NCBI GenBank assembly: GCA_031396825.1
Contig: JANNLM010000026.1
Span: 1 to 45,857, forward strand
Length of the DNA stretch: 45,857 nucleotides
From: Gammaproteobacteria bacterium
Lineage (GTDB): Bacteria > Pseudomonadota > Gammaproteobacteria > Nevskiales > Nevskiaceae
Direction: 5' to 3'
Under the pieces are notes generated by a model. It was not told the origin of the DNA and ran no database searches. It saw only the letters and a list, made by a program, of their open reading frames with translations. Made by a program: the position numbers and the translations under genes. Below, piece by piece: positions 5,050 through 34,465 of the stretch (its first letter is position 1; each line of letters begins with the position of its first letter).

Positions 5050-5057
5050 GCGCGCGT

Positions 5058-9192: not shown

Positions 9193-11226
9193 TCAGGCCG
9201 CGACCACGCAATCGCCCTTGGGCTTGGCTTGGCAGGCAAGGATGATTCCCTTGGCCTTGTCCTCGGCATCGAGCGCGTCGTCCACCGCCATCTCGACCTC
9301 GCCGGAGGTCATCGCGACCTTGCAGACCCCGCAGGTGCCGACGCGGCAGGAGAACTCGATGCCGATGCCAAGCTCTTCAGAGAGTTCGAGAACCGTCTGG
9401 TTGGGGCGGCTTCTGGATGCCTTGTTGTTCCTGGAGAACGTCACCAAGGGGCCAGTGGCCGGCGCCACTGGGGCCGCGGCGGTGCCTGCGGCGGCGGGTT
9501 GCGGCGCGGCGGTGCCGAAATCTTCGGCCTTCACCTGTTCGGGTGGCACGCCCAGTTCAGTGAGCAGCGCCTTGACCGCTTGCATCATGACCGGAGGGCC
9601 ACAGAGATGGACACGGCGCGTCGTGAGCGCGGGCACTGCTTCCGTGAGTAGCCTTCCCGTGATGCGTCCGATGGGCCCGGCCCAGTCGGTGCCTTCCGGT
9701 TTTTCCATCGTCACGGTGACGTGAAGGTGGGGGTTGCGTTGCTGGAGTGCGAAGAGGTCTGCGGCAAAGATGAAATCAGGTGGCGCACGGCAGGCATAGA
9801 AGAAATAGATGTCGCCCGGCCAGGCGCTTTCGGTGAGGGTGCGTGCAATGCTCATCATCGGTGTGACGCCAACGCCTCCGGCGATCAGCACGATGCTGCT
9901 CGCCTCCGCACCGGTAAACGTGAACTTGCCGACCGGCCCACCGACGTCGATCACGTCGCCCACCTTGAGCAGATCATCCAGATGCCGCGACACCGCACCG
10001 CGTGGCTCGCGTTTGACGGTGATATCGACAAAGCCGCGCTGCGTTGGCGACGAGGAGATGGAGTAGGAGCGGTTCATCTTGGCGCCGCCAATCCACAGTG
10101 AGAGATTGAGAAACTGGCCGGGCAAAAACGTGAACGGCAGCAGCCCCGCGCCCGATGCAGGCAGCAGGCGCAGTGTTTTGACGCTCGGCGTTTCGACGAT
10201 GACGCTCCCAACCCGAAGCTGCCCCAGCCACTTTGCGGTGACGGGTGGAGCCACAGAGGTGGCGTCCGCGTCCGCGGCCGCAGGCTCGACTTTCTGTACT
10301 GCGCTGGCTGCGGCTGATGTATCGGCTGGTGTGTTCGGTGTGTCGTTTGGTTCCGTCGGTGGTGGCTTGCCGCTGGCCGACGGTGTCGCCGGCGGTCGGC
10401 CCGGTGGGCCGGAGAGAGGCGGTGAGGAGCCCGGCGGCAGCCCGCCAGAGCCACTTTCCAGACGCCCAAAGAGTGCAGCGGCGCGTCGCATCTTGAGGAC
10501 ATAGATGACGACCATCGCCACTGCAAAAGCGACCAGCAGCAGCATCGTGACCAGGTGAAACGCTTTGACACCGCCAGAGGTCTGTGGCGAATCCGCAGTG
10601 ATTGGCGACGCGAGATTCATCTCGCGCCTGAACCAGTCCAATGCAAGGTTGCGTGGCGCCTTGCCGTCCGACAGCACCCGTCGCGCGGCGATGCCCGCTC
10701 CCATCTGATCGAGGCCCTCGCGCATCAGGCCAAGCGCTTGCTGCATGGCGACGTTGTCGCCAGCGTGTGCCGCGCGCTCAAGCGACTCGGCGCCGGTCGC
10801 GAGTCGCGCCATGCCTTCGTCGAGCTGCTGGCTCGACAGCGCGTCGATTTCGGCGCGCATCGCAGGCGTGAGCGCAGGCAGCGTCATCAGCGAGGGATAG
10901 ATCGGTGTCTTGGCTGCGGCGGGCGGCATCATCTGGCTCATCATGTCCATCATCCCGCCCATGCCACCCGCCATCGCCGGTGCCCCGGGCGCGCCGGATG
11001 CCGCTGCGGGAGCCGCCATGGGCGCATTCGGGGCCATCCCCGCTGCAGCAGGTTGACCAGCGATTTCAGCCATCGGTGCGCCGTCCGCCACGGCCGGTGC
11101 GGCGGGTGTGCCTGCGGCGTCCGCGCCGGGGTGATGGCTCTCGTGCTCGTCTGTCGTCTGTGCGTTTGACGGAAGCGCGATGAGCGCCAACGCCACCACA
11201 ATGCTGCCGATGAGTCCTCGTTCCAT
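9193..11226 (-). CDS. Bitopic fusion protein. Order: signal peptide, Met-rich periplasmic domain, one TM, Pro-rich linker, FNR-type FAD/NAD(P)H oxidoreductase, 2Fe-2S ferredoxin.
   Basis: Start ATG 11226 (MERGLIGSIVVALALIALPSNAQ) overlaps the upstream stop as TGATG. Periplasmic part: MAGGMGGMMDMMSQMMPP plus helical repeats. TM: FHLVTMLLLVAFAVAMVVIYVL. FNR motifs: RSYSISS, LIAGGVGVTPMMS, HLCGPPVMM. Ferredoxin motif: CRVGTCGVC...ILACQ. Confidence 0.8.
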   Translation of the reverse strand: MERGLIGSIVVALALIALPSNAQTTDEHESHHPGADAAGTPAAPAVADGAPMAEIAGQPAAAGMAPNAPMAAPAAASGAPGAPAMAGGMGGMMDMMSQMMPPAAAKTPIYPSLMTLPALTPAMRAEIDALSSQQLDEGMARLATGAESLERAAHAGDNVAMQQALGLMREGLDQMGAGIAARRVLSDGKAPRNLALDWFRREMNLASPITADSPQTSGGVKAFHLVTMLLLVAFAVAMVVIYVLKMRRAAALFGRLESGSGGLPPGSSPPLSGPPGRPPATPSASGKPPPTEPNDTPNTPADTSAAASAVQKVEPAAADADATSVAPPVTAKWLGQLRVGSVIVETPSVKTLRLLPASGAGLLPFTFLPGQFLNLSLWIGGAKMNRSYSISSSPTQRGFVDITVKREPRGAVSRHLDDLLKVGDVIDVGGPVGKFTFTGAEASSIVLIAGGVGVTPMMSIARTLTESAWPGDIYFFYACRAPPDFIFAADLFALQQRNPHLHVTVTMEKPEGTDWAGPIGRITGRLLTEAVPALTTRRVHLCGPPVMMQAVKALLTELGVPPEQVKAEDFGTAAPQPAAAGTAAAPVAPATGPLVTFSRNNKASRSRPNQTVLELSEELGIGIEFSCRVGTCGVCKVAMTSGEVEMAVDDALDAEDKAKGIILACQAKPKGDCVVAA

Positions 11227-11993
11227 CACTTGCCTCTCGTTGCGTTGGTGGCCTTGGGAACCGCCGCGGGTGCGACGGTGCCAAGCAGTGCGCGACGCTG
11301 ATCGTCGGTCAGAACGCGGGCGGCCTCGCCAACCGCCCGGATGAATGCGATCCGTCGATCGCCTCTCAGTTTTTCGATGTCGCGCACCTTGGTTTTGAGC
11401 GCCATGGAGTCGGGCTGGTCGGATCCCGTGAGCAACCACAACTCCTGCTCCGCCTGATCGATCTGGCGCTGCACTGCCGCCACATCCCCCATCGACTTTT
11501 GCTTGATTCGGTTGAGAGCGACGGCCTGGTCCGTGCTCAACTTGAGCGCCGTGGAGTAGTCGAGGAAAAAGCCGGTCGCGCCGACGTGGTAGATGTGCGA
11601 GACGCCAGGAAAGCCCGGCAGGTCGGACTGCATCGTCGGCGGTGGCGACCCCGCCGCGCTCATCTTCCCCATCATTTCGCCGCAACAGCCTGCGGCCGCG
11701 GGCATGGTCATCGCGGGCGGGTTGGCCGCACCGCTCGTTGTCCTCGCATCAGCCGCCGCCATTCCGCCGGGCGGTACCCCGGTCTTGAAGTTCCGGCCTT
11801 GATGGCTCTTTTCGAGTGCAGCCTGGATCGCCGCGAGCCGCACTCTGACTTGCGCGATCCCCTGCCCGAGTTTCGCCGTCGGTGGCGTACTCATCGCGGC
11901 CACGGCAGGCCTTTCGCTTGCCAACGGCATCTCTTGAGCGAACGCACACGGCATCAGAATCAGGGTGGTCGCAACGAACAGCAGCGCGATCAT
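11226..11993 (-). CDS. Periplasmic CpxP/Spy/CnrX-like (LTxxQ-type) Met-rich heavy-metal stress protein
   Basis: Signal peptide MIALLFVATTLILMPCAFAQ. Met/Cys-rich segment PPAMTMPAAAGCCGEMMGKMSAAGSPPPTMQ. Two LTxxQ-like helices (LSTDQAVAL and LTDDQRRAL), as in the CpxP/ZraP/heavy-metal-resistance family. Confidence 0.65.
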   Translation of the reverse strand: MIALLFVATTLILMPCAFAQEMPLASERPAVAAMSTPPTAKLGQGIAQVRVRLAAIQAALEKSHQGRNFKTGVPPGGMAAADARTTSGAANPPAMTMPAAAGCCGEMMGKMSAAGSPPPTMQSDLPGFPGVSHIYHVGATGFFLDYSTALKLSTDQAVALNRIKQKSMGDVAAVQRQIDQAEQELWLLTGSDQPDSMALKTKVRDIEKLRGDRRIAFIRAVGEAARVLTDDQRRALLGTVAPAAVPKATNATRGK

Positions 11994-12117
11994 CGTGGGC
12001 TGCCTTTACCGGAGACGTTGATCGATGAATAGGCATGAACGTTACCCGCATGTCGCTCCAGCCTCTGTCCGTTAGCGCACAGAGCCCGCCCGATTGCGTT
12101 GGTACGGTCGCCGAACA

Positions 12118-13134
12118 ATGCAACTCGGCATGGTTGGACTGGGCCGGATGGGCGGCAACATGGCGCGCCGGCTGATGAAGGGCGGGCACCAGTGCGTTGT
12201 CTTCAACCGGACGCCGCAGAAGGTGGCAGATCTGGTCAGGGAGAATGCAGTCGGTGCCTCCTCTGTGGCGGAGCTCGTCAGGAAACTGCAGAAGCCGCGA
12301 GCGGTGTGGTTGATGCTGCCCGCAGGCGTCGTCGACACGTTCATCGGCGAGCTGCTGCCGCTGCTGGAGCCCGGTGACGTCCTGATTGACGGCGGCAACT
12401 CCTGCTACGTCGATGACATACGGCGCGCAAAGGAGCTCGCGCCGAAACAGATCCACTATCTGGACGTAGGGACCAGCGGCGGTGTCTGGGGATTGACCCG
12501 GGGCTACTGCATGATGATCGGTGGTGAGAAGAGCGCCGTGCAGCAGCTCGACCCCATCTTTGCCACGCTTGCGCCCGGCCACGGCGACATCGCGCGCACT
12601 GTCGGGGGTGAGAACCTCGGCGGCACATCCGAGCAGGGTTATCTCCATTGCGGGCCGAGTGGCGCCGGGCACTTCGTCAAGATGGTCCACAACGGCATCG
12701 AGTATGGCCTGATGGCAGCCTATGCCGAAGGTCTCAGCGTCTTGCGGCAAGCAAACATCGGCAAACAGCCGAACGATTCCGACGCCGAGACGACGCCACT
12801 CTTTGCGCCAGAGCACTACCAATATGATTTCAAGCTTGGGGAGATTGCCGAAGTCTGGCGGCGAGGGAGCGTCCTGGCATCCTGGCTGCTGGACCTGACG
12901 GCAGCGGCGTTGGTGAAGGACTCCAGCCTTTCGCAGTTCGACGGTCGAGTGTCTGACTCGGGCGAAGGTCGGTGGACCATCAAGGCTGCGACCGATGAAG
13001 GAGTGCCGGTGCCGGTGCTCGCTACCGCGCTTTATTCGCGCTTCGCCTCCCGAGGCGAGGCGGACTTCCAGGGCAAGGTGCTATCAGCCATGCGGTACGG
13101 ATTCGGCGGCCATCTGGAGAGGCCCCCGAAATAG
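12118..13134 (+). CDS. gnd: 6-phosphogluconate dehydrogenase (decarboxylating), short form
   Basis: MQLGMVGLGRMGGNMARRL Rossmann start. Conserved GGNSxY, DVGTSGG, YCMMIGGEK and HFVKMVHNGIEYG blocks. ATG at 12118. Confidence 0.85.
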   Translation: MQLGMVGLGRMGGNMARRLMKGGHQCVVFNRTPQKVADLVRENAVGASSVAELVRKLQKPRAVWLMLPAGVVDTFIGELLPLLEPGDVLIDGGNSCYVDDIRRAKELAPKQIHYLDVGTSGGVWGLTRGYCMMIGGEKSAVQQLDPIFATLAPGHGDIARTVGGENLGGTSEQGYLHCGPSGAGHFVKMVHNGIEYGLMAAYAEGLSVLRQANIGKQPNDSDAETTPLFAPEHYQYDFKLGEIAEVWRRGSVLASWLLDLTAAALVKDSSLSQFDGRVSDSGEGRWTIKAATDEGVPVPVLATALYSRFASRGEADFQGKVLSAMRYGFGGHLERPPK

Positions 13135-13143
13135 GCGCAGCTC

Positions 13144-14544
13144 ATGAACGATTCCCACTCCGATGCCCTCGTCTTCTTTGGGGCCACCGGCGACCTCGTC
13201 TTCAAGAAGATTGTTCCGGCACTCTACGCAATGGAGCGGCGGGGCCATCTTCAGGTGCCGGTCATCGGCGTCGCGAGGTCCGACTGGACCATCGATCGTT
13301 TCCAGGCTCGCGTCCGTGAGAGCGTTCAGAAGCACTGCGAGCTTGACGAGGCGGTGTTCGCGAAGCTCGCCAGCCGGCTTCGGTACATCAGCGGCGACTT
13401 TGGCACTTTGGCCACTCACGCCGCTCTCCGCAAGGAGCTTGGCAGCGCCGGGCACCCGCTTCACTACCTCGCAATCCCCCCCAGTGTTTTTGCGGGTGTC
13501 GTGGAAAAGCTCGGCCAGTCGGGCTGTGCCCGCGGCGCGCGCGTTGTCGTCGAAAAACCCTTCGGTCGCGACCTTGCGTCCGCGCAGGCGCTGAGCGCGA
13601 CGCTTCACTCCGTTTTCGACGAGGCGAACGTCTTTCGCATCGACCACTACCTTGGCAAGGAATCGGTGCAGAACCTGCTCGTGTTCCGTTTCGCCAACAG
13701 CTTCCTTGAGCCGTTCTGGAACCGGGACCATATTCAGAGCGTACAAATCACCATGGCCGAGAAGCCTGGCGTCGAGGGCCGTGGCAGCTTCTACGAGGAG
13801 TCCGGCGCAATTCGCGACGTGATTCAGAACCACATTCTCCAGGTCGTGGGCTTCCTCGCGATGGAGTCGCCGCTCATGGCAAGCAATCAGGCGATCCGCG
13901 ATGAACAGACAAAGGTGTTCAGGAAGATCCGTCCTTTGCGTCCGCAGGACCTGGTGCGAGGTCAGTTCCGTGGCTACAGGGAAGAGAAGGGCGTCGCGCG
14001 GGATTCCAGTGTGGAAACGTTCGCCGCCGCGCGGCTCAGCATCGACTCCTCACGATGGCAGGGCGTCCCTTTCTTCATCCGCGCGGGAAAGTACCTCCCT
14101 GCGACAATGACCGAGGTGTTGGTCATGCTGAAACAGCCCCCACTCAGCAGCCTCTGCCCCGGCCAGCCGAACTATGTGCGCTTCCGGCTGAGCCCTGACG
14201 TGACGATTGCCATCGGGGCCCGTGTGAAGCGCCCTGGCGACGAGTTGATTGGTGATCTGACGGAACTCAAGGCTGTCAGCCGCCCGCAGGCGGATGAGAT
14301 GGATGCCTACGAGCGACTCTTGACCGATGCCATGAAAGGGGACGACACGCTGTTCGCGAGTCAGGCCGGGGTCGAGGCCGCCTGGGCTGTCGTTCAACCG
14401 GTTCTGGGGTCGGTGACCCCCCTGCATGACTACCCACCCGGTTCCTGGGGCCCAGCGGAAACTGAGCAGCTCATGGCGGGACTCTGTGATTGCGACAGCC
14501 CAGTCTGGCTCCTGCCTCACGGTGAAGGCGGAGCGAGGGAGTGA
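13144..14544 (+). CDS. zwf: Glucose-6-phosphate 1-dehydrogenase
   Basis: [15 protein letters not shown] motif, the RIDHYLGKE signature, and [11 protein letters not shown]. Confidence 0.92.
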
Positions 14545-15305
14545 CTAAGCCTACGGTCATCATCGAAGAGAGCCTCGATGCGCTGACCGAGCGGGTCGCG
14601 GAGGAGTTTTCGAAACAGGCAGCGCAGGCCCTCTCCTCGAGGAAACATTTCACTTGCGTGCTCTCGGGCGGCTCCACGCCGGTGGCCCTGTATGCCTTGC
14701 TCGCGCAGACGGCCCGCTACCGCAACGGGATCGATTGGAAGAGGGTTCACTTCTTCTGGGGCGACGAGCGCCACGCAGGCCCTGACGCTCGTGAAAGCAA
14801 CTATCGGATAGCCAAGGAAGCGATGCTCTCGCCGCTTGAGATTCCATCCGGGAATGTCCACCGCATCCTCGGCGAGCTCACCAGCGCGGAAGACGCTGCG
14901 GTCGCCTATGACGAGGAGCTCGGGCGCTTCTTCGGGTTGAAGCCAGGAGCTCTCCCGCGCTTCGATTTCGTGCTGCTGGGGATGGGCGCCGACGGACACA
15001 CCGCCTCGCTCTTCCCCGGAATCCCGCAGTTGGACGATACGCGCAGGAGGGTGCTGGCCCCGTGGGTGGAGAAGCTGGCGGAATTTCGGGTCACGCTCAG
15101 CCCGCTGACGTTCAATGCCGCAGCCTGCGTGCTGTTCCTGGTTGCCGGACGGGAGAAAGCACCGACCCTGAAGGCGGTGCTCGAGGGCCCGCGCGCTCCG
15201 AACGAACTGCCGTGCCAACTCATCCAGCCCGACCGCGGGGAACTCGTGTGGGCCCTGGATCAGGCCGCGGCCAGCCAATTGAAAACCTGCCCATTGCATC
15301 AATGA
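14541..15305 (+). CDS. pgl: 6-phosphogluconolactonase
   Basis: The GTG start overlaps the zwf stop (GTGA). LSGGSTP, FWGDER and [16 protein letters not shown] motifs are present. Confidence 0.85.
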
Positions 15306-15407
15306 CGAATCGGCATAGCTATGCGCACCACCGCACCGAGGGCTTGGCGGCAACGGCCCAAGATCAGGATCGAGCATCACCATGCAAACTGAACTGGGCG
15401 TGCGCAA

Positions 15408-16781
15408 ATGGAGCTAGGGTTCTACGGCGCAACGGGCACGGTCACCGGCTCGAAGTATCTCCTGAGCACGGAGCGTTCGCGCATCCTCATTGACTGCGGA
15501 CTGTTCCAGGGCTTCAAGCAACTGCGCTTGCGCAACTGGTCAGCGCCGCCCTTCGACCCGGCGGCGCTCGACGCCGTGGTGCTGACCCACGCGCATCTCG
15601 ACCACACCGGCTACCTGCCGCTGCTGGTCAAGAACGGCTTCAAGGGGCCGGTGTACTGCACCGAGGCCACCAAGGCGTTGTGCGGCATCCTGCTTCCCGA
15701 CAGCGGCAGGTTGCAGGAGGAAGAGGCCGAGCACGCCAACCGCAACCGCCGGTCGAAGCACTCGCCCGCGCTGGCGCTCTACACGGAAGCGGACGCCCTG
15801 AAGGCGCTCGAGCAGCTGAAGCCGTGTGCTTACGACACGGCCTTCGACGCGGGCCCGGGCCTGTCGGCCAGCTTCGCCCCAGCCGGCCACATCCTCGGCT
15901 CGGCGATGATCCGCATCACGGACGGCAAGACGCGCGTCGTCTTCAGCGGCGATCTCGGCAGGCCCGTGGATTCCATCATGCGGCCGCCGGCCCCGTGCCC
16001 GGAGGCGGATTACCTCGTCATCGAGTCGACCTACGGCAACCGGCGGCACGACGCGGCCGACGCGCATGCCGAGCTTGGCAAGGTGATCCGGCGCACGGCC
16101 GAGCGTGGCGGCGTGGTCGTGATTCCCTCCTTCGCCGTCGGGCGCACGCAAAGCCTGCTCTGGTGCATCCATCGCCTGAAGGCGCAGGGCCTGATTCCCG
16201 CGACCCTGCCGGTGTACCTGAACAGCCCGATGGCGGTGAGCGTCACCGCCCTCTACCACCGTCACCGCAGCGAGCATCGCCTGACGCCGGAAGAATGTGA
16301 CGCCATGTGCCACGCCGCGCACATCGTCAATACGGTCCAGGAATCCCAGGCCTTGAACGAGCGGCACGGGCCCATGGTGATCATCGCGGGCAGCGGCATG
16401 GCCACCGGTGGGCGCGTGGTTCATCACCTCAAGGCGTTCGCGCCGGACCAGAAGAACACGATCGTGTTCGCCGGCTTCCAGGCCGGCGGCACGCGCGGCG
16501 CGGCGCTGATGGCGGGCGCCGAGACCATCAAGATCCACGGCCAGTATGTGGCCGTGCGCGCCGAAGTCGTCGCGCTCAGCAACCTGTCGGCGCACGCCGA
16601 CCAGGCCGAGATGCTGGACTGGCTGCGCCGCGCGCCCCGTGCGCCGCGCACGACCTTCATCACCCACGGCGAGCCGGCCGCCGCCGATGGCCTGCGGCTG
16701 CGAATCGCCGAGGACCTGCACTGGGACTGCCAGGTGCCGGAGTACCTGGAGCGGGTCACGCTCGACGCACCGGAGGCCTGA
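15408..16781 (+). CDS. Beta-CASP family metallo-beta-lactamase-fold (RNA-metabolising type) hydrolase
   Basis: MBL motifs HAHLDH, PAGHILGSA and SGDLG. Beta-CASP motifs A (ESTYG), B (VVHHL) and C (SAHAD). Length 457 aa. Confidence 0.8.
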   Translation: MELGFYGATGTVTGSKYLLSTERSRILIDCGLFQGFKQLRLRNWSAPPFDPAALDAVVLTHAHLDHTGYLPLLVKNGFKGPVYCTEATKALCGILLPDSGRLQEEEAEHANRNRRSKHSPALALYTEADALKALEQLKPCAYDTAFDAGPGLSASFAPAGHILGSAMIRITDGKTRVVFSGDLGRPVDSIMRPPAPCPEADYLVIESTYGNRRHDAADAHAELGKVIRRTAERGGVVVIPSFAVGRTQSLLWCIHRLKAQGLIPATLPVYLNSPMAVSVTALYHRHRSEHRLTPEECDAMCHAAHIVNTVQESQALNERHGPMVIIAGSGMATGGRVVHHLKAFAPDQKNTIVFAGFQAGGTRGAALMAGAETIKIHGQYVAVRAEVVALSNLSAHADQAEMLDWLRRAPRAPRTTFITHGEPAAADGLRLRIAEDLHWDCQVPEYLERVTLDAPEA

Positions 16782-16784
16782 TCA

Positions 16785-18275
16785 ATGCGCATTCGCCGCA
16801 TGGGCATCCACACCTACCAGGAACCTGTCGTCTACATGCGCGCGGATTGCGCCGTGTGCCGCGCCGAGGGCTTCGAGTCGCAGTCGCGCGTCAAGCTCAG
16901 CCTCAATGGCCGCTCGGTCATTGCGACGCTGAACACCGTTGATGCCGCGTTGCTCGACGCCGAGGACGCCGGCCTTTCCGATGCCGCGTGGCTGGCGCTT
17001 GGCGGCCGCACCGGCGACGAAATCACGGTGTCACACCCGGATCCGCTCGAATCGTTTTCGCACGTGCGCGCCAAGGTCTACGGCCACTCGCTCTCGGACG
17101 AGGCCTTCACCGCGATCATCGGCGACGTAGCGGCGGGGCGTTACTCGCCCCTGGAGATGGCGGCCTTCGTCACCGCTTGCGCGAGCGACGCCCTGTCCCT
17201 CGATGAGACGATCGGCCTGACGCGGGCGATGGTCGGCGCCGGTGAGCGCCTGCGCTGGCCCGCGCCCCTTGTCGTCGACAAGCATTGTGTGGGCGGCCTG
17301 CCGGGAAACCGGACCACTCCTATCGTCGTCGCCATCGTCGCCGCCAATGGCCTGACGATTCCCAAGACATCCTCACGGGCGATCACCTCGCCCGCGGGCA
17401 CGGCGGACACCATGGAGACGCTGGCGCCGGTGGACCTCGACCTCGCCACCCTGCGGCGCGTCGTCGATCGCGAAGGCGGCTGCATTGCCTGGGGCGGCGC
17501 CATGCGCCTCTCCCCCGCCGACGACATGCTGATCCGCGTCGAGCGGCCGCTGGATTTCGACAGCGAGGGGCAACTCGCCGCCTCGGTCATTTCCAAGAAG
17601 GTCGCGGCCGGCTCGACGCACGTCGTCATCGACGTGCCGGTCGGCCCGACCGCCAAGGTGCGCACGCTGACCGAGGCCGAGGCCTTGTCGCGGCGCCTGC
17701 GCGCGGTCGGCGAAGCGCTGGGCCTGGTCGTTCGGATCGTCACCACCGACGGCAGCCAGCCGGTGGGCCGCGGGATCGGGCCGGCACTCGAGGCCTTCGA
17801 CGTCGTCGCGGTGCTGCAGAACGCCGCCGATGCTCCCGCAGACCTGCGGGATCGCGCCGTGCTGCTTGCCGGACACCTGCTAGAGATCGGTGGCAAGGCT
17901 GCTACCGGCGAGGGCGCGCGCCTGGCGCTCGACACGCTCGCGGACGGAAATGCCTGGCGCAAGTTCCAGGCGATCTGCGCGGCGCAGGGCGGCATGCGCG
18001 AACCGCCGCGCGCCGCGCACCGCAAGCCTTTCACTTCCACCCTGGACGGTCAGCTCAAGGCCATCGACAACCGCCGGCTGGCGCGAATCGCGAAGCTGGC
18101 CGGCGCGCCGGCGGCGCCGGCGGCCGGCATCGAGCTGGCCGTGCGTGTCGGCGAGCGCATCTCGCGCGGCCAGCTGCTGTTCACGCTGCACGCGCAGTCG
18201 CCCGGCGAGCTCGCGTACGCCGCCGCGTTTGCGCAGGCGCATCCTGAAACCTTCGAGATCGGGGGCCTTGCATGA
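16785..18275 (+). CDS. Thymidine-phosphorylase-family protein of the AMP-phosphorylase-like clade (with N-terminal extension)
   Basis: VDKHCVGGLPGNRTTPIVVAIVAANGLTIPKTSSRAITSPAGTADTME resembles the archaeal AMP phosphorylase / 'putative thymidine phosphorylase' signature. The canonical DeoA signature would be SGRGLGHTGGTLDK. An extra N-terminal domain of about 80 aa is present; total 496 aa. Confidence 0.75.
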   Translation: MRIRRMGIHTYQEPVVYMRADCAVCRAEGFESQSRVKLSLNGRSVIATLNTVDAALLDAEDAGLSDAAWLALGGRTGDEITVSHPDPLESFSHVRAKVYGHSLSDEAFTAIIGDVAAGRYSPLEMAAFVTACASDALSLDETIGLTRAMVGAGERLRWPAPLVVDKHCVGGLPGNRTTPIVVAIVAANGLTIPKTSSRAITSPAGTADTMETLAPVDLDLATLRRVVDREGGCIAWGGAMRLSPADDMLIRVERPLDFDSEGQLAASVISKKVAAGSTHVVIDVPVGPTAKVRTLTEAEALSRRLRAVGEALGLVVRIVTTDGSQPVGRGIGPALEAFDVVAVLQNAADAPADLRDRAVLLAGHLLEIGGKAATGEGARLALDTLADGNAWRKFQAICAAQGGMREPPRAAHRKPFTSTLDGQLKAIDNRRLARIAKLAGAPAAPAAGIELAVRVGERISRGQLLFTLHAQSPGELAYAAAFAQAHPETFEIGGLA

Positions 18276-19159
18276 AGCCGCTGGTTCTCGGCCTGCCGCA
18301 CAACGAACGCCTGGTGCAAAGCCTGGTCACCTTGCTGGAGGGCGATGCGGGGACGCTGACGGTCCGGCAGTTTCCCGACGGCGAATCGTATGTGCGCGTC
18401 GAGTCGGACGTGCGCGGACGCACGGTTGTGCTGGCCTGCGGCCTGGACCGGCCGGACGCCAAGGTTCTGCCCTTGTATCTCGCGGCCCGAACGCTGCGGG
18501 ACCAGGGCGCTGCGCGCATCATCCTGGTCGCCCCTTACCTGGCCTACATGCGGCAGGACAGGATTTTTCACGAGGGCGAAGGCATCAGCGCGCGGCACTT
18601 CGCCGCCTGGCTGTCGTCCTTTGTCGACGGCATCGTGACGGTGGACCCGCACCTGCACCGCATCCACAGCCTCGCGGAGGTCTACCCGATCGCCTCGCGC
18701 GTCGTGACTGCGGCGCCCGCAATCTCGCAATGGATTCGCGAGCAGGTGCCGAAGGCCGTGCTGGTCGGCCCCGACGCCGAGAGCGAGCAGTGGGTCTCGC
18801 AGGTCGCGCGTGAGGCCGGAGCGCCCTTCGTGATCCTCGAGAAAACCCGGCGCGGTGACCGCGACGTGGAAGTGTCGGTGCCGCAGATGGCGCGCTGGAG
18901 TGAGCACACGCCGGTGCTGGTCGACGACATCATCTCCACCGCGGGCACCATGATCCAGACCGTCGGCCACTTGCGGCAGGCCGGCATGCGCGCACCGGTC
19001 TGCATCGGCGTGCATGCGATCTTCGCCGGCCCGGCTTACGAGGATCTGGTGGCCGCGGGCGGCGAGCGCATCCTGACCTGCAACACGATCGTGCACCGCT
19101 CCAACCAGATCGACGTCCACCCGCTCGTCGCCCGATCGGTGCTGAGCCTCCTCGCGTGA
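18272..19159 (+). CDS. Ribose-phosphate diphosphokinase (Prs) family paralogue
   Basis: ATGA overlap with the upstream stop. APYLAYMRQDR matches the Prs motif YxxYARQDR. VLVDDIISTAGT is the PRPP loop. Length 295 aa. Confidence 0.8.
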   Translation: MKPLVLGLPHNERLVQSLVTLLEGDAGTLTVRQFPDGESYVRVESDVRGRTVVLACGLDRPDAKVLPLYLAARTLRDQGAARIILVAPYLAYMRQDRIFHEGEGISARHFAAWLSSFVDGIVTVDPHLHRIHSLAEVYPIASRVVTAAPAISQWIREQVPKAVLVGPDAESEQWVSQVAREAGAPFVILEKTRRGDRDVEVSVPQMARWSEHTPVLVDDIISTAGTMIQTVGHLRQAGMRAPVCIGVHAIFAGPAYEDLVAAGGERILTCNTIVHRSNQIDVHPLVARSVLSLLA

Positions 19160-19235
19160 AGCGACCCCCCGTAGCCGGACTCGCTGGCCGCCCATGGCTT
19201 GCGCCAAGCAGCGTCCGGAGCGAGACTGCCTCGCG

Positions 19236-19637
19236 ATGAGCACGCTTCGTTCAGTTCTTGCGGTCTGGCTATCGTTGTCGCTGCCAACATCGGCACTGGC
19301 ATCAACAACGTCTGCGCAGCATTGCTCCCGTATGGCAGCAACCGGGGCCAGCGCAGCGGATCCCCACGCGGGGCACGACATGCAAGGCATGTCGCACGCC
19401 GAACACCAGCAGCACATGGCGAAGGTGGGCGCGGACACCAAGGTACCCGCGAACGGCTGCCAGTGCGGGTGCAACTGCATTAGCAGCCACTGCGTTTCCA
19501 GCGCTTCCGGCCTCATGAACGGGGCGTACGCCGTTGTTTCGCTGTCGGTCAACGACGGCTTGCACGCCCATGCCGGCCCCACACGCACGGCAGCGGCCCA
19601 TCATCTCGACCTCCTCCGACCTCCCAGTCTGACCTGA
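19236..19637 (+). CDS. copL: CopL-like small secreted Cys/His/Met-rich protein
   Basis: Signal peptide MSTLRSVLAVWLSLSLPTSALA. HAGHDMQGMSHAEHQQHM stretch. Cys cluster CQCGCNCISSHC. C-terminal HHLDLLRPPSL resembles the CopL-family tail (recalled from memory). Confidence 0.5.
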   Translation: MSTLRSVLAVWLSLSLPTSALASTTSAQHCSRMAATGASAADPHAGHDMQGMSHAEHQQHMAKVGADTKVPANGCQCGCNCISSHCVSSASGLMNGAYAVVSLSVNDGLHAHAGPTRTAAAHHLDLLRPPSLT

Positions 19638-19640
19638 CGT

Positions 19641-19664
19641 AAAGCCGCGCTTCGCGGCTTTTTG
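19641..19664 (+). terminator. Rho-independent terminator after the copL-like gene
   Basis: aaAGCCGCgcttcGCGGCTttttg: a 6-bp GC stem (19643-19648 / 19654-19659), a 5-nt loop and a T-run, 4 nt after the stop codon. Confidence 0.6.
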
Positions 19665-19714
19665 CTGCCGCCCCGTTTGGACGGCACGCGTTCAGGTGAA
19701 CAGACGGAGGTCCT

Positions 19715-21319
19715 GTGAGTCGCAAGCATTTTTTCACGTCAGCGGTTGCGCTGATTTTGGCAAGTGGGTGCGCCAGCCTGCCGGCGGATTTGGGTCGCGG
19801 CGACGTGGCGACCCTGCTCCAGTCGCGTGGGCAGGCGACGAATCCGGCGGATGCCGAAGCCGCGCGACGCCTGCTGGATCAACTGGGTGAGCGCCCGCTT
19901 GCCGCCAGCGATGCCGTCCAGCTCGCGCTGGTCAACAACCCTCAGCTGAAAGCTGGATACGCAAGGCTGGGCTTCGCGGCGGCGGAGGTTTATGACGCCG
20001 GGCGGCTGAGCAACCCGCGGCTGTCGGCGTCGGTGCTCTTTCCCGACGCCGGCGGCGAGGCCAATCGGGTGGGCTTCGGCCTGGCCCAGAGTTTCACCAA
20101 TCTCCTGCTGCTGCCGGCGCGCAGCCGCTTCGCCGAGGGCGAGTTCGAGCGCGTGAAACAGGACCTGGCCGCGCAGGTTCTGGGCCTGGCCGCCGACGTC
20201 GAAGCCGCGCACTACCGCCTGGCGGGCGGCTGGCAGATCGTGACGATGCGCGAGACCGTGCTCAAGGCAGCGCGGGCATCCGCCGACCTGGCGCAGCGAT
20301 TCCTGGACGCCGGCAACATCAACCGTCTGGAACTGGCGCGCGAGCAGGCTGCAGCCTCCCAGGCGCAGCTGGATCTGCTGCAAGCACAGGCCGAGGTGAC
20401 GGGGCTGCGCGGCGAGCTCAACCGTCTGATGGGACTCGCCGCTACGGAGGACCGCTGGAAAATCGCGGGAGGGTTGCCGGCACCGGTCACGAGCGAAGAT
20501 GCGTGGCCCGAGCTGCTGAAGGCGGCCGATGCGAATCGTCTTGACCTGGCCGTCGCGCGCAAGCGCGTCACGCTGTTCGCGGATGCCCTGGGCGTGACAC
20601 GCCGCTTCCGCTATCTCGGCGAGGTGGAGATCGGCGTGGAAACCGAGCGTGAGACCGACGGCTCGCGCGTGACCGGCCCGACGCTGGCGCTGGAGCTGCC
20701 GATCTTCAATCAGGGCAAGGGCCGCGCCGCCCGTGCCGAGGCCGATCTGCAACTCGCCGAAGCGGAACTGCGCGTGCTGGAGGTCGAGATCAGCAACGGC
20801 CTGCGGCGCGCATCAGCGGAGGTCGAAGCCGCCAAGACCCGCGCCGAGCATTACCGCCAGTCCCTGATCCCGCTTCGCGAGGCCATTGTCGCGCGCACGC
20901 AGGAGCAACTGAACTACATGCTGGTCGGTCAGTTCGAGATGTTACTGGTCAAGCAGCAGGAATACGACGCTTACCAGGGCTATCTGGAAGCCGTGCGCGA
21001 TTACTGGCTGGCGCGGGTGGAACTGGCGCGCGAAGTCGGCGCCCCACTCCCCAGCAGCGTACAAACCGCGGGAGAAGTGCTGGACGCCGAGGAGCTGACG
21101 CGGCCTCGAGGCGACGGCATGAAGGGCATGGACCACGACTTGCCGGGGATGGAACCGTCAGATGCCGCGCCAACAATGCCACCGCCACGCAAAGGTGAAG
21201 GACCGTCCGGCATGCCCACCGGCATGGAGTCGCACATTCCAGAACCTGCCGGCAAGTCCGATCCGGCCCCGAAGAAAACCGACCCAACAGACACGCAGCA
21301 GCACGGAGACCCTCCATGA
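19715..21319 (+). CDS. TolC/CusC/CzcC-type outer-membrane factor lipoprotein with a Met/His/Pro-rich C-terminal tail
   Basis: GGAGG lies 7 nt upstream of GTG 19715. Lipobox LILASGC. It has the two-repeat OMF architecture with coiled-coil-rich segments. The tail is GDGMKGMDHDLPGMEPSDAAPTMPPPRKGEGPSGMPTGMESHIPEP. Confidence 0.8.
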   Translation: MSRKHFFTSAVALILASGCASLPADLGRGDVATLLQSRGQATNPADAEAARRLLDQLGERPLAASDAVQLALVNNPQLKAGYARLGFAAAEVYDAGRLSNPRLSASVLFPDAGGEANRVGFGLAQSFTNLLLLPARSRFAEGEFERVKQDLAAQVLGLAADVEAAHYRLAGGWQIVTMRETVLKAARASADLAQRFLDAGNINRLELAREQAAASQAQLDLLQAQAEVTGLRGELNRLMGLAATEDRWKIAGGLPAPVTSEDAWPELLKAADANRLDLAVARKRVTLFADALGVTRRFRYLGEVEIGVETERETDGSRVTGPTLALELPIFNQGKGRAARAEADLQLAEAELRVLEVEISNGLRRASAEVEAAKTRAEHYRQSLIPLREAIVARTQEQLNYMLVGQFEMLLVKQQEYDAYQGYLEAVRDYWLARVELAREVGAPLPSSVQTAGEVLDAEELTRPRGDGMKGMDHDLPGMEPSDAAPTMPPPRKGEGPSGMPTGMESHIPEPAGKSDPAPKKTDPTDTQQHGDPP

Positions 21320-22740
21320 TCACGCGACGCAAATTGCTCTCGATGACCGGCGCCGGCGGTCTCGCCGGCCTTGGCAGTCTGTTCGCGCGCCGCGCGAGTG
21401 CCCAGCACGAAGGCCACGACATGTCGAAGATGAAGGACAAGCCGGCCCCGGAAGCGGCCGCCGCCGGCGCGGAGGCGCCGGCCCCGGCGACGGCGACCGC
21501 GCGGGGTTACACGCCGGTGCGCACGCTCAACGGCTGGACGCTGCCTTACAAGATGAAAAACGGCGTCAAGGAGTTCCACCTGGTGGCCGAGGAAGTCGAG
21601 CACGAGTTCGCGCCGGGCTGCGTCGCGAAATGCTGGGGCTACAACGGCACCACGCCGGGACCGACGATCGAGGCGGTCGAAGGCGATCGCGTGCGCATTT
21701 ACGTCACCAACCGGCTGAAAGAGCACACGACGATCCACTGGCACGGCATTTTGCTGCCGTCCGGCATGGATGGCGTCGGCGGGCTCAACCAGCCGCACAT
21801 CAAGCCCGGCGAAACCTTTGTCTACGAGTTCACGCTCAGGCAGCACGGCACGCACATGTATCACCCGCATGCCGACGAGATGGTGCAGATGGCGGTGGGC
21901 ATGATGGGGATGTTCATCATCCATCCCAAGGATAGCGAGCCGAACCGCATCGACCGCGACTACTGCTTCCTGCTGCACAACTGGGCGCTGCATCCGGGCA
22001 CCTACCGGCCCGACCCTTCGATCATGACGGACTTCGACCTGTGGACGTTCAACTCCAGGGTGTTCCCGGCGATTGACTCGATCGTCGCGCGCACCGGCGA
22101 ACGCGTGCGCATCCGCATCGGCAATCTCTCGATGCACGAGCACCCCATCCACCTGCACGGCGTGCAGTTCTGGGTGACCGGCGGCGACGGCGGGCGGCTC
22201 GCGCAAAAGCTGTGGCGGACCGAGGTCACCGAAATCGTCGGCGTCGGCCAGATGCGCGATATCGAGTTCACCGCCATTGCAGGCGACTGGGCCTTCCACT
22301 GCCACAAGTCGCATCACACGATGAACGCAATGGGCCATGGCGTCCCGAACACCATCGGCGTGGATCAGTCCGGCGTGGAAAAAACCATCCGCTCGATGCT
22401 GCCCGGCTACATGGCCATGGGCAAGGACGGCATGGCTGAGCACCAGGACCACACCAATATGGGCCATATGCAGGGCCCCGAAAACACCCTGCCGATGATG
22501 ATGGGCAAGGGCCCGTTCGGAAATCTGGAGATGGGCGGCATGTTCACCGTGGTCAAGGTGCGCGACAACCTTGCGCCCGGCGACTACCGCGATCCGGGCT
22601 GGTATCGCAATCCGAAGGGCACGGCCGCCTGGCGCACCAGCGCAGATCCCGGCTTCGGCAAACCGGTACGGCGCACGCGGCCGCCCTCATCCGAAGCGCC
22701 ACGGTCCACCCCGAAACCCAGCCCACACAGCGGCCACTAA
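21316..22740 (+). CDS. Tat-exported compact multicopper oxidase (apparently two cupredoxin domains) with a Met/His-rich C-terminal extension
   Basis: ATGA overlap with the OMF stop. Tat motif TRRKLLSM. Copper motifs HWHG (aa 141-144), HPH (183-185), HEHPIHLHG (274-282) and HCHKSHHTMNAM (328-339). About 135 aa follow the last motif, including MLPGYMAMGKDGMAEHQDHTNMGHMQGPENTLPMMMGKG. Confidence 0.85.
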   Translation: MITRRKLLSMTGAGGLAGLGSLFARRASAQHEGHDMSKMKDKPAPEAAAAGAEAPAPATATARGYTPVRTLNGWTLPYKMKNGVKEFHLVAEEVEHEFAPGCVAKCWGYNGTTPGPTIEAVEGDRVRIYVTNRLKEHTTIHWHGILLPSGMDGVGGLNQPHIKPGETFVYEFTLRQHGTHMYHPHADEMVQMAVGMMGMFIIHPKDSEPNRIDRDYCFLLHNWALHPGTYRPDPSIMTDFDLWTFNSRVFPAIDSIVARTGERVRIRIGNLSMHEHPIHLHGVQFWVTGGDGGRLAQKLWRTEVTEIVGVGQMRDIEFTAIAGDWAFHCHKSHHTMNAMGHGVPNTIGVDQSGVEKTIRSMLPGYMAMGKDGMAEHQDHTNMGHMQGPENTLPMMMGKGPFGNLEMGGMFTVVKVRDNLAPGDYRDPGWYRNPKGTAAWRTSADPGFGKPVRRTRPPSSEAPRSTPKPSPHSGH

Positions 22741-24731: not shown

Positions 24732-27128
24732 TCAGCCAGCGCCCGGCCAGCGCCAGTTGCGGATCTCCGGCAGGTCCTGGCCGAACTTGTTGATGTGCAG
24801 CTTGTGCTCGACGAGCCTGGCTTCGAGCTGCCGGCGCAATGCAGCGCCCGGCGCGCCGGTCTGCGGCAGGCGGTCGATGGTGTCCATCACCAGGTGAAAG
24901 CGGTCGAGGTCGTTCAGCACCGTCATGTCAAACGCGGTGGTGACCGTGCCCTCCTCCTTGTAACCGCGCACATGAATGTTGTGGTGATTGGTGCGGCGGT
25001 ACGTCAGGCGATGGATCAGCCACGGATAGGCGTGAAACGCGAAGATCACCGGCTTGTCGCGCGTGAACAGCGCATCGAAGGCGTGGTCGGAGAGACCGTG
25101 CGGATGCTCGGTCGGCGACTGCAGGCGCATCAGGTCGACGACGTTGACCACGCGAATCTTCAGCGCCGGCAGACGCGCACGCAGGATCGAAACCGCAGCG
25201 AGCGTCTCCAGCGTCGGCACGTCGCCGCAGCAGGTCATGACCACGTCGGGCTCGCCGCCTGAATCGTTGCTGGCCCAATCCCAGACGCCGATGCCCGCGG
25301 CGCAGTGCGCGTCCGCGGCGTCCATCGCCAGCCACTGCGGCGCCGGATGCTTGCCGGCGACGATCACGTTGACGTAGTGCCGGCTGCGCAGGCAGTGGTC
25401 CATCACCGACAGCAGGCAGTTCGCATCGGGCGGCAGGTAGACACGCACGATCGCCGCCTTCTTGTTGACGACGTGATCGAGGAAGCCGGGATCCTGGTGG
25501 GTGAAGCCGTTGTGATCCTGGCGCCAGACATGCGACGCCAGCAGGTAATTCAGCGAAGCGATCTTGCGCCGCCACGGCAGCTGCGAGGTGACCTTGAGCC
25601 ACTTCGCGTGCTGGTTGAACATCGAATCGACGATGTGGATGAAGGCCTCGTAGCAATTGAAGATGCCGTGGCGCCCGGTGAGCAGGTAGCCCTCGAGCCA
25701 GCCTTCGCACTGGTGCTCGCTGAGCATTTCCATCACCCGCCCGGTCGGTGCGAGCCATTCGTCGGTCGGCAGCGTCGCCGCCTGCCACTGGCGCCGCGTC
25801 GTTTCGAACAGCGCTTCCAGGCCGTTCGACGCCGTCTCGTCGGGACCGAAGACGCGGAAGTTGCGCTGCGCTTCGTTGAGCCGGGCCACGTCACGGACGA
25901 AGCGTCCGCAGACGTGCGTGTCGCCGATGCCGGTAACGCCGGGTGCGGGCACCTCCACGGCGTAGTCGCGGAACGCCGGCATGGCAAGGTCGCGCAGCAG
26001 CAACCCGCCGTTGGCATGCGGATTCGCGCCCATGCGTCGCTTGCCTGCAGGCGCGAGTTCGGCCAGCGCGGGGATCAAGCGTCCGCGTGGGTCGAACAGT
26101 TCCTGCGGCCGGTAACTGCGCAGCCAGTCCTCCAGCAACTGCAGGTGACCGGGATGCCTGGCCGGATCCGACAGCGGCACCTGGTGCGAGCGGAACGTGC
26201 CCTCGACCTGCTTGCCGTCGACGACCTGCGGGCCGGTCCAGCCCTTCGGTGAACTCAGCACGATCATGGGCCAGCGCGGCCGGCCGACCTTGCCGTGCAC
26301 GCGCGCATCCCGCTGATGCGTCTTGATCTGCGCGACGGCGGCGTCGAGCGCCGCGGCCATCGCCTGATGCATCAGCGCGGGCTCGTGCCCTTCGACGAAG
26401 GTCGGCGTCCAGCCATAACCCCGCAGCAGTTGCTCGAGCTCTTCGTGCGTGATGCGCGCGAGGATGGCGGGACTCGCGATCTTGTAGCCGTTGAGATGCA
26501 GGATCGGCAGCACCGCGCCGTCGGTGGCCGCATCGAGGAACTTGTTCGAATGCCAGGCCGTCGCCAGCGGCCCGGTCTCCGCCTCGCCGTCGCCGATCAC
26601 GCAGGCCACGATGAGATCGGGATTGTCGAACACGGCGCCGAAGGCATGGCTCAGCGAATAGCCCAGCTCCCCGCCCTCGTGGATCGACCCGGGACACTCG
26701 GGCGAAGCGTGACTGGGAATCCCGCCTGGAAACGAGAACTGCAGGAACAGCTTCTGCAATCCGGCTTCATCCTGGCTGATGTGCGGATAGACCTCGCTGT
26801 ACGTGCCCTCGAGGTAGGTATTGGCGACGACGGCGGGGCCGCCGTGCCCGGGCCCCGAGACGTAGATCATGTCGAGGTCGTATTGGCGGATGATCCGGTT
26901 CAGGTGAACGTAGATGAAGTTTTGTCCCGGCGTCGTGCCCCAGTGGCCGAGCAGCATCGGCTTGACGTCGGCGAGCGTGAGGGGGCGCTTGAGCAGCGGG
27001 TTGTCGTAGAGATAGATCTGGCCGGCCGACAGATAATTCGCAGCCCGCCAGTAGGCATTCATCCTCGCAAGGAGGTCGGACGAGAGCGGTTGGTTCACAG
27101 TTTGTTCCTGGTCAGCAGACGGATGCAC
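24732..27128 (-). CDS. xfp: Xylulose-5-phosphate/fructose-6-phosphate phosphoketolase
   Basis: 798 aa. [40 protein letters not shown] and [13 protein letters not shown] (ThDP site) are present. Confidence 0.95.
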
Positions 27129-34437: not shown

Positions 34438-34465
34438 CACGTCTCCTAAACGCCGTCGTTATTCA
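34194..34465 (-). repeat. Direct repeat copy 1 (5' end of the ATPase gene plus its RBS/leader)
   Basis: Roughly 90% identical by eye over about 270 nt to 35411-35680. The match includes the Shine-Dalgarno region and about 25 nt of upstream leader. Confidence 0.85.

Follow-up and report, generated by a model that had tools for sequence, protein, structure and literature searches.

Phosphorolysis of nucleoside monophosphates (NMPs) to ribose-1,5-bisphosphate (R15P) is regarded as a speciality of the archaea and the candidate phyla radiation (CPR), tied to RuBisCO. The AMP phosphorylase (AMPpase) of Thermococcus kodakarensis (Tk) phosphorolyses AMP, CMP and UMP to R15P (PMC9700705). Here, we describe a unit of three genes on the 45,857-nucleotide contig JANNLM010000026.1 from a Gammaproteobacteria bacterium of the Nevskiaceae (the window, meaning the whole 45.9-kb stretch analysed, with ~66% GC), in which an AMPpase-like protein of the thymidine-phosphorylase (TP) fold is flanked by a beta-CASP nuclease and a Prs-like ribose-phosphate diphosphokinase. 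In Bradyrhizobium diazoefficiens, the adjacent genes bll3115-bll3117 encode the same three product types (PMC6515984, PMC9104804). The three genes are a conserved, mobile module, which we tentatively read, at a probability of roughly 45%, as one operon for phosphoribosyl salvage under stress or low oxygen.

The three-gene unit and its AMPpase-like middle enzyme

The unit and its elements are located as follows.

15408-16781, + strand: beta-CASP nuclease of the metallo-beta-lactamase (MBL) fold, TTHA0252 type, 457 aa (Pfam, relatives in the Protein Data Bank, PDB)
16779-16787, + strand: junction of the beta-CASP stop and the TP-like start, with TGA (16779-16781), TCA and ATG at 16785, a 3-nt gap
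16785-18275, + strand: AMP/NMP-phosphorylase-like protein with the thymidine-phosphorylase fold, 496 aa (TIGR02645 / NF003338)
16785-17060, + strand: N-terminal extra domain of ~90 aa, beta-rich (AlphaFold2 secondary structure, 4GA5 alignment)
17292-17408, + strand: active-site signatures GGLPGN and KTSSRAITSPAGTAD (alignment to Tk AMPpase and pyrimidine-nucleoside phosphorylase, PyNP)
18272-18275, + strand: ATGA start/stop overlap of the TP-like and Prs-like genes, a translational coupling (direct sequence reading)
18272-19159, + strand: Prs-like ribose-phosphate diphosphokinase, PRK07199 subfamily, class III-like, 295 aa (NF005537)

Both the gap and the overlap are read in the sequence at the positions given by the original prediction, and the beta-CASP-type hydrolase and Prs paralogue that it named as flanks of the middle gene agree with the Pfam and NCBIfam matches. 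The GC content at third codon positions (GC3) of the trio, 0.87-0.91, is the highest of the region. The closest named relatives of the TP-like gene belong to Nevskiaceae and Solimonas; a plasmid megablast with the trio gave zero matches, and the contig thus lacks close relatives among known sequences.

The TP-like protein contains the Pfam domains Glycos_trans_3N, Glycos_transf_3 and PYNP_C and belongs to the family TIGR02645 / NF003338 (PRK04350), named 'putative thymidine phosphorylase', passing both models with 594.2 bits (TIGR02645, cut-off 434.6) and 679.3 bits (NF003338, cut-off 434). An identity as DeoA or PyNP was rejected, the scores being 139 against a cut-off of 571 for TIGR02643, 190 against 409 for TIGR02644 and 193 against 269 for NF004490. 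Among solved structures, the best relative is the Tk AMPpase (4GA4/4GA5/4GA6) with 328 bits, whereas any PyNP or TP reaches at most 135 bits. GGLPGN is situated at residues 170-175 (17292-17309) and KTSSRAITSPAGTAD at residues 194-208 (17364-17408). In the alignment, HCVGGLPGNRT / KTSSRAITSPAGTAD of the window protein corresponds to HSIGGVPGNKT / KTSSRAITSAAGTAD in the Tk AMPpase, while the PyNP and TP motifs differ (HSTGGVGD / KMSGRGLGHTGGT). The conservation of catalytic motifs in the three proteins was taken across 36-70 orthologues and is at least 95% throughout, the TP-like signatures having been followed in 70.

The AlphaFold2 model of the TP-like protein (pLDDT 91.3) was compared with solved structures by Foldseek. 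Since it superposes on the full-length AMPpase 4GA5_A over 498 columns with a TM-score of 0.88, N-terminal domain included, this extra domain is common to both proteins; the superposition covers ~430 columns with TM ~0.70 for PyNP and TP, and reaches TM ~0.5 for TrpD. The AMPpase-type signature and N-terminal extra domain, which the original prediction had set against the DeoA type, are therefore borne out by the motifs, the bit scores and the superposition. Searched alone by sequence against the PDB, the N-terminal domain gave zero matches. It carries a CxxC motif (DCxVCR) at residues 22-25 (16848-16859), in which C25 is invariant and C22 is at least 70% conserved; the motif is not seen in the AMPpase alignment, which begins only at residue 73. 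Such a motif could act as a metal or redox site.

The Prs-like protein consists of Pribosyltran_N and Pribosyltran, and passes NF005537 with 410.5 bits (cut-off 322) and TIGR01251 with 193 bits (cut-off 113). Its best solved relatives are archaeal class III synthases of phosphoribosyl pyrophosphate (PRPP), namely 1U9Y, 4TWB and 3LPN. The catalytic motifs FPDGE, RQD, DPHLH, K.R and DDIxS..T are all present and conserved, and no feature arguing for altered chemistry was found in the sequence. The enzyme may be a plain, unregulated PRPP synthase; it may also run in reverse, or possibly act on R15P itself.

The beta-CASP protein combines Lactamase_B, Beta-Casp and RMMBL, and its best solved relative is the Thermus thermophilus RNase TTHA0252 (2DKF, 261 bits). 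The metal-binding motifs THAH.DH (THAHLDH) and SaHAD (SAHAD) are at least 95% conserved in 36 orthologues. The family is broader than the trio and is carried by 220 plasmids. On the plasmid of Bradyrhizobium sp. BTAi1 (L087, 6877-9359), a stand-alone beta-CASP gene has a divergent TIGR00730 (LOG-type) partner, with glgA nearby. We take the TIGR00730 family to include NMP nucleosidases (PpnN-type); if the partner is PpnN-type, the pair would be a hydrolytic analogue of the pairing of RNase and NMP phosphorylase. A role of the trio in a defence system was rejected, as PADLOC models give it only partial matches (E = 0.001-0.003, 14-16 bits).

The names assigned by PGAP, 'thymidine phosphorylase family protein', 'ribose-phosphate pyrophosphokinase' and 'MBL fold metallo-hydrolase', would suit a plainer account, in which a pyrimidine/thymidine nucleoside phosphorylase, a redundant PRPP synthase and an MBL hydrolase unrelated to them merely travel together, and the canonical motifs of the Prs-like protein are in keeping with it. 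However, the DeoA and PyNP scores lie far below their cut-offs, AMPpase-type motifs stand in place of the DeoA type, the AMPpase N-domain is present, and the cross-phylum coupling and the PhnN and Prs fusions described below are unexpected for unrelated genes; such ordinary redundancy is highly improbable.

Conservation, fusions and low-oxygen control in Bradyrhizobium

A scan with one genome per species gave at least 598 loci, of which the best 80, the closest relatives, were analysed. These derive from Alpha-, Beta- and Gammaproteobacteria and from metagenome-assembled genomes labelled Gemmatimonadota, Planctomycetota, Acidobacteriota, Myxococcota and Bacteroidota; their gene calls are heuristic, and copies of one element are included (L020/21/22/26/29 and L033/37/42). 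Linkage was counted in the 62 loci whose flanks extend for 3 kb or more in each direction, a partner being scored within 10 kb of the TP-like gene. The Prs-like gene is so placed in 54 loci (87%) and the beta-CASP gene in 47 (76%), with both partners in 41 and neither in 2. An overlap of 4 nt or 1 nt is possible at the TP-Prs junction in 38 of 51 related loci, and at the beta-CASP-TP junction in 34 of 44. The full trio is found at 50% identity, on a contig with type IX secretion-type (Por_Secre_tail) genes, and the TP-Prs pair is still kept at 45%; a relative close to the Tk AMPpase stands alone, without the trio partners. Because it recurs in dozens of unrelated genomes, the arrangement goes far beyond chance. 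Plasmid records number 126 for the TP-like gene, of which 49 are conjugative, and 112 for the Prs-like gene; the genus profile is the same for both, and the carriers include one Criblamydia and one Pontibacter plasmid.

The triad had been called tightly coupled and uncharacterised, and both terms hold: the coupling recurs, and the literature searched contains no biochemistry on the trio, its genes appearing in omics tables under generic names only. No biochemical study of bacterial members, no bacterial NMP phosphorylase and no R15P/PRPP link of such an enzyme was found there, and a 2026 preprint on classes of PRPP synthase links none of these classes to TP-like genes. The bacterial branch of the AMPpase-like enzyme comprises at least 8000 sequences.

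In the salvage route that we propose, all three enzymatic steps are predictions. The TTHA0252-type beta-CASP protein, a putative RNase, would degrade RNA to 5'-NMPs, as its homology suggests. By homology, structure and fusion partners, the AMPpase-like enzyme is predicted to convert NMP + Pi into base + R15P, as in the archaeal AMPpase. In the third and least certain step, the phosphoribosyl unit would re-enter the PRPP/ribose-5-phosphate pool, the class III-like Prs serving as partner on the PRPP side. The Prs-like protein would be a catalytically normal PRPP synthase without class I allosteric control, keeping PRPP available at low energy charge so that released bases and NAD precursors could be re-ribosylated. 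In loci with a phosphoketolase-family enzyme and acetate kinase, surplus pentose phosphate might be fermented to acetyl phosphate.

The fusions of the family bear most directly on the fate of the product. In a search of 1.84 billion cluster representatives, the best 150 family members were examined, and 14 of them are PhnN::TP-like fusions, each with an N-terminal extension of ~185 aa and intact P-loops. The extensions match TIGR02322, the equivalog of the PRPP-forming ribose-1,5-bisphosphokinase PhnN, with 184-208 bits against a cut-off of 156. One further representative among the best 150, P0135, is a PRK07199-Prs::TP-like fusion. In four independent loci, the PhnN fusion gene lies 3-32 nt downstream of a gene for a NadC-type quinolinate phosphoribosyltransferase; a TRAP or TTT transporter and MarR/FRG genes stand alongside, and the Prs-like and beta-CASP genes are not present. 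PGAP names the fusion protein just 'PhnN'. The cassette of NadC and PhnN::TP-like looks like a PRPP-regenerating or quinolinate-utilisation cassette, and the PhnN of E. coli can reportedly supply PRPP for NAD synthesis. Because the fused kinase PhnN has R15P as its only known substrate, the fusions tie the family to R15P and PRPP. They are the strongest available indication that the family makes R15P, and, with the Prs fusion, they point to PRPP as the probable bacterial destination of the bisphosphate, rather than to the pentose-phosphate pathway directly.

A neighbour-joining tree, drawn without support values, places the clade of PhnN fusions adjoining the window clade and P0135 beside it, with the Tk AMPpase more basal and PyNP far outside. 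The PhnN fusions are ~600 and ~685 aa long and form their own clade (P0165-P0260; genes at L089 10001-12154, L090 9965-12091 and L092/L093 8001-10064). Elsewhere in the AMPpase family, seven proteins of 912-1017 aa (P0162, P0177, P0187, P0207, P0209, P0238 and P0270) carry an insertion of 430-500 aa in the GG.PGN...KTSS active-site region. P0162 alone was scanned, and its insertion matches intein models; this protein scores 561 bits against TIGR03327, above the cut-off of 535.

The fusions also allow a bolder account, in which the Prs-like protein functionally replaces PhnN. It would be a kinase (R15P + ATP -> PRPP + ADP), or else a phosphotransferase performing the Prs reaction one phosphate short (R15P + AMP <-> ribose-5-P + ADP). 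RNase, NMP phosphorylase and Prs-like protein would then constitute a RuBisCO-independent bacterial 'pentose-bisphosphate shunt' for RNA ribose, which, in anoxic dormancy, would save the energy stored in the N-glycosidic bonds of RNA nucleotides and would have spread across phyla by plasmids and integrative and conjugative elements (ICEs) with copper-resistance genes. We consider this distinctly unlikely.

The low-oxygen link of the triad, suspected earlier, is observed in B. diazoefficiens at the level of both RNA and protein. Between microoxic and oxic conditions, the protein log2 fold change and transcript fold change are 2.9 and 15.4 for bll3115 (MBL fold), 4.4 and 7.7 for bll3116 (Prs), and 2.1 and 5.1 for bll3117 (TP family) (PMC6515984). 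The genes bll3117-bll3116-bll3115 are a predicted operon with a FixK2 box, ATGATCTGGGTCAA, at -74, and in the fixK2 mutant bll3117 is down 6.6-fold and bll3115 down 30.6-fold; the phosphoketolase/acetate-kinase operon bll2518-bll2517 stands in the same FixK2 regulon table (PMC9104804). In addition, 12 of 37 non-redundant loci carry an Fnr/FixK-type box ahead of the beta-CASP gene, where real sequence from these loci would lead one to expect ~3.7. No riboswitch was found in the window or in six related loci. In the literature searched, copper or anaerobic expression data for these genes are limited to the two Bradyrhizobium papers, and the paper on the low-oxygen lxa locus of B. cenocepacia does not mention the trio genes.

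Induction at low oxygen would equally suit a control of the adenylate pool that has no link to RNA. On failure of respiration, the AMPpase-like enzyme would remove AMP and so draw adenylate kinase in the direction of ATP, the Prs-like enzyme would rebuild the pool on recovery, and the beta-CASP protein would have a separate regulatory role. In E. coli, AMP is removed by AMP nucleosidase. AMP is both a product of Prs and a substrate of AMPpase, PPK2 lies in the gene string of the trio on an Acidovorax plasmid, and roughly one locus in four does without the beta-CASP gene, which stands alone elsewhere. Against this, most loci have the beta-CASP gene directly upstream, with possible translational coupling, the Tk homologue acts on CMP and UMP as well as on AMP, and the NadC-linked fusions indicate a broader role in ribotides and PRPP. 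On balance, the adenylate account is unlikely.

Several points weigh against the salvage route as well. The step from the bisphosphate to the Prs substrate is its weak point: a plain Prs uses ribose-5-phosphate, not R15P, and no R15P-consuming enzyme (PhnN, R15P isomerase or RuBisCO) was found in the window or the 80 loci, the isomerase having been sought without a dedicated profile. Specifically, the RuBisCO large-subunit signature was not found in the window or the 80 loci (+/-10 kb), nor were PhnN and NadC genes in the window or these loci. The R15P-isomerase family is unmatched among the scanned window open reading frames (ORFs) and recurrent neighbours, with no search by its own profile; this accords with the earlier statement that the window holds neither RuBisCO nor the isomerase. 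The beta-CASP gene is the most separable member of the trio and stands alone in BTAi1 and in C. metallidurans CH34, where it is the only one of the three and adjoins a Crp/Fnr regulator. With 465.4 bits, the TP-like protein does not reach the cut-off of 535 of the AMP_phos equivalog TIGR03327; because of this score it is best placed in an uncharacterised sister family and not in the characterised AMPpase family, and the literature searched holds no assay of any bacterial-clade member. The PhnN fusions are likewise a sister clade, and since it is only 40-48% identical to the window protein, we infer rather than read off any function that the two share; the tree relating them is the one without support values. 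Furthermore, the Bradyrhizobium 'MBL fold' gene is presumed to be of beta-CASP type from the shared PGAP product name alone, and no Fnr box was found in the window.

The large bacterial AMPpase-like branch is wired to a PRPP synthase and an RNase, or fused to PhnN beside NadC in the sister clade. If the salvage route is correct, numerous Proteobacteria, among them rhizobia, Legionella, Ralstonia, Cupriavidus and Achromobacter, would possess an unrecognised route from RNA and nucleotides to PRPP and the pentose-phosphate pool. The trio would be a candidate for the nucleotide, NAD and energy upkeep of aerobes during hypoxic persistence, and three very common 'family protein' annotations would gain functions.

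Pentose-phosphate and copper genes around the trio

Around the trio, the window contains the following sugar-phosphate genes and an intervening hydrolase gene.

12094-15305, + strand: gnd-like, zwf and pgl, directly upstream, context outside the conserved module (family matches)
24732-27128, - strand: canonical xfp, with the signatures EGGELGY and GDGE present (Pfam)
27131-~28360, - strand: ackA (Pfam)
28333-29655, - strand: GH144-like 'putative glucoamylase' (PF10091), between ackA and tal (Pfam)
29738-30823, - strand: tal (Pfam)

The position of the triad behind gnd-zwf-pgl and opposite tal/xfp/ackA, from which a ribose-salvage route had been proposed, is confirmed by the family matches. A conserved link is not: none of the 80 loci has gnd, zwf, pgl or tal next to the trio, and the 73%-identical Nevskiaceae loci lack these genes as well. 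Between pgl and the beta-CASP gene lies a gap of 102 nt in which neither a terminator nor a sigma-70 promoter was found, and the GC3 of the trio is ~0.1 above that of gnd-zwf-pgl. The position of the trio beside gnd-zwf-pgl is peculiar to the window contig, and incidental.

Recurrent neighbours were obtained by unbiased clustering of all ORFs around the 80 loci. The YHS/HMBD copper P-type ATPase leads with 34 loci (within 10 kb), followed by an ICMT-like methyltransferase (19) and a phosphoketolase-family cluster (17, with ~13-15 divergent members and 2 canonical xfp). Next are DUF6629 (12), multicopper oxidase (11), a major facilitator superfamily (MFS) transporter and type II (archaeal-type) glyceraldehyde-3-phosphate dehydrogenase (GAPDH; 10 each), Hsp20, MerR and UbiB (8 each) and a Crp/Fnr regulator (6). 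CusCBAF components, DUF2933 and MgtC are also recurrent, and an acetate kinase gene is present in 7 of the 80 loci. The dominant conserved context of the trio is thus copper-resistance genes and plasmid carriage, which the original prediction missed.

The divergent phosphoketolase-family protein has ~800 aa, 24% identity to the Xfp of the window and the signatures EGGYLGF and SDGAFEE, and scores 124 bits against phosphoketolase cut-offs of at least 777; PGAP names it 'xylulose 5-phosphate 3-epimerase'. Its gene is situated at L073 12481-14886, L031 12615-15029, L068 6208-8595, in ~12 other loci and on the Acidovorax plasmid (L081 20497-22917). The gene often belongs to the operon of the trio; in L031, L060, L068 and L070 it has, sometimes together with an acetate kinase gene, a 4-nt overlap with trio genes. 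On the Acidovorax plasmid, a same-strand string runs through MerR, PPK2, P-type ATPase, MFS, LemA, TPM, TPM, MBL, TP and Prs, onward to type II GAPDH. The type II phosphorylating GAPDH (NF003251, 446 bits), at L020 15999-17054, in 9 other loci and at L081 18020-19063, is a third 'archaeal-type' enzyme in these islands, beside the AMPpase-like and class III-like Prs proteins.

Such neighbours raise the question of whether the trio serves fermentation, feeding the ribose of RNA and nucleotides into the pentose-phosphate pathway and on to phosphoketolase and acetate kinase, with ATP gained by substrate-level phosphorylation in starvation and the Prs-like enzyme running in reverse or the bisphosphate otherwise becoming ribose-5-phosphate. 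The window trio lies between gnd-zwf-pgl and xfp-ackA-tal, and in B. diazoefficiens the trio and the phosphoketolase/acetate-kinase operon are both FixK2-dependent. The divergent phosphoketolase-family gene, sometimes with an overlap inside the operon, the acetate kinase and the type II GAPDH recur at the counts given above, genes for pyruvate:ferredoxin oxidoreductase and alcohol dehydrogenase adjoin the trio on a Phenylobacterium plasmid, and acetate genes stand near AMPpase in a CPR genome (PMC5113843). However, ~80% of the loci lack any phosphoketolase-family gene within 10 kb, even close relatives do not share the adjacency of gnd, zwf, pgl and tal, and the recurrent phosphoketolase-like protein falls far below its cut-offs with altered signatures. 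Furthermore, the fusion partner PhnN and the neighbour NadC point to the use of PRPP and not to catabolism, and no candidate enzyme for R15P -> pentose monophosphate was identified. As the purpose of the trio, fermentation is rather unlikely.

Of the route first proposed for this locus, the AMPpase-like enzyme, the oxygen link and a minority association with phosphoketolase and ackA therefore stand, and the link to gnd-zwf-pgl and tal falls. Where phosphoketolase-family, acetate-kinase or GAPDH genes accompany the trio, in a minority of loci, a conjectural ATP-yielding fermentation of ribose is a plausible outlet; as the defining purpose of the module it finds no support.

The prominence of copper genes suggests another function, in which the trio, as cargo of a copper island, handles a consequence of copper intoxication and the N-domain CxxC acts as a metal or redox switch. 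Besides the ATPase in 34 of the 80 loci, multicopper oxidase, CusCBAF, MerR, DUF2933 and ICMT recur, and the association extends to the nearest relatives and to the 50%-identical relative, whose trio is flanked by CusA/CusB-type genes; the window itself is a cop island, and the CxxC is conserved. Yet the trio and the copper genes may simply be stress cargo that is selected together on plasmids and ICEs, the P-type ATPase/MerR pair of the nearest relatives is convergent with the trio and not co-transcribed, and the regulation in Bradyrhizobium is by oxygen. A copper or metal-stress function is very unlikely.

The copper-resistance genes of the window form a mosaic interleaved with the sugar-phosphate genes (226-2580, 4111-6761, 19194-22740, 31942-34440 and 35247-35654). 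They comprise two P1B-ATPases (YHS/HMBD type and HMA type), CopA/CopB, a CopL-like ORF, an outer-membrane factor with a multicopper oxidase, and a CopZ-like HMA protein. A tRNA-Tyr (48-133, - strand) at the left end of the window adjoins a Cu-ATPase, and in the nearest relative, L083, a tRNA-Ser (15375-15464, - strand) adjoins MerR and a Cu-ATPase; both are possible island integration sites. Two window genes, at 2532-3902 and 3656-4120 (both - strand), encode proteins of ~455 aa and ~160 aa without a Pfam or NCBIfam match. These proteins (clusters c32 and c20) recur beside the YHS-type Cu-ATPase in L049, L039 and other loci, and are unannotated components of metal islands.

Two long ORFs complete the neighbourhood. 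The ORF of 2899 aa at 35878-44577 (- strand) contains GH94 supersandwich and catalytic domains with a weak GT2 match, and is assigned by these domains to the cyclic beta-1,2-glucan synthase (NdvB/Cgs) type; together with the PF10091 gene, it hints at a glucan-to-phosphoketolase route on the contig. In the ORF of 830 aa at 9193-11685 (- strand), family matches are confined to the C-terminal 340 aa (FAD/NAD-binding reductase and 2Fe-2S domain), and the N-terminal 490 aa are probably an over-extended start or a separate unrecognised gene.

Comparison with known systems

Each member of the trio resembles a described enzyme. The beta-CASP protein is like TTHA0252 in its domain set and metal-binding motifs; to our knowledge, no operon link of TTHA0252 to nucleotide phosphorylases has been described. 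The Prs-like protein agrees with the class III PRPP synthases of Methanocaldococcus jannaschii (1U9Y) and S. solfataricus (4TWB) in its length of ~290 aa and all catalytic motifs, whereas it belongs to the bacterial PRK07199 subfamily and is an extra copy on mobile elements, always paired with the TP-like gene. In the case of PhnN, the partner is fused to the sister clade of the TP-like protein, and R15P -> PRPP is the downstream step in that branch. Prs likewise forms PRPP from ATP; however, the enzyme that holds the place of this partner in the 80 loci, a Prs-family member, has an unrelated fold and ribose-5-phosphate as its substrate.

The operon bll3117-bll3116-bll3115 of Bradyrhizobium, known from omics tables only and without assigned function, has the same three product types in one predicted operon; its order is TP-Prs-MBL, whereas that of the window is MBL-TP-Prs. 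Compared with the Tk AMP/NMP phosphorylase (4GA4/4GA5/4GA6), the middle enzyme has the same fold including the N-terminal domain, with 38-42% identity, and the signatures GG[VL]PGN[KR]T and KTSSRAITS.AGTAD are common to both, while the N-domain of the window protein has diverged in sequence and bears the CxxC. In contrast to the archaeal and CPR pentose-bisphosphate (AMP) pathway, the window enzyme is bacterial and its family plasmid-borne, and in place of R15P isomerase and RuBisCO, which were not found nearby, its partners are a Prs-like kinase and a beta-CASP nuclease. The trio is, in these respects, a bacterial variant of the archaeal NMP-phosphorylase route.

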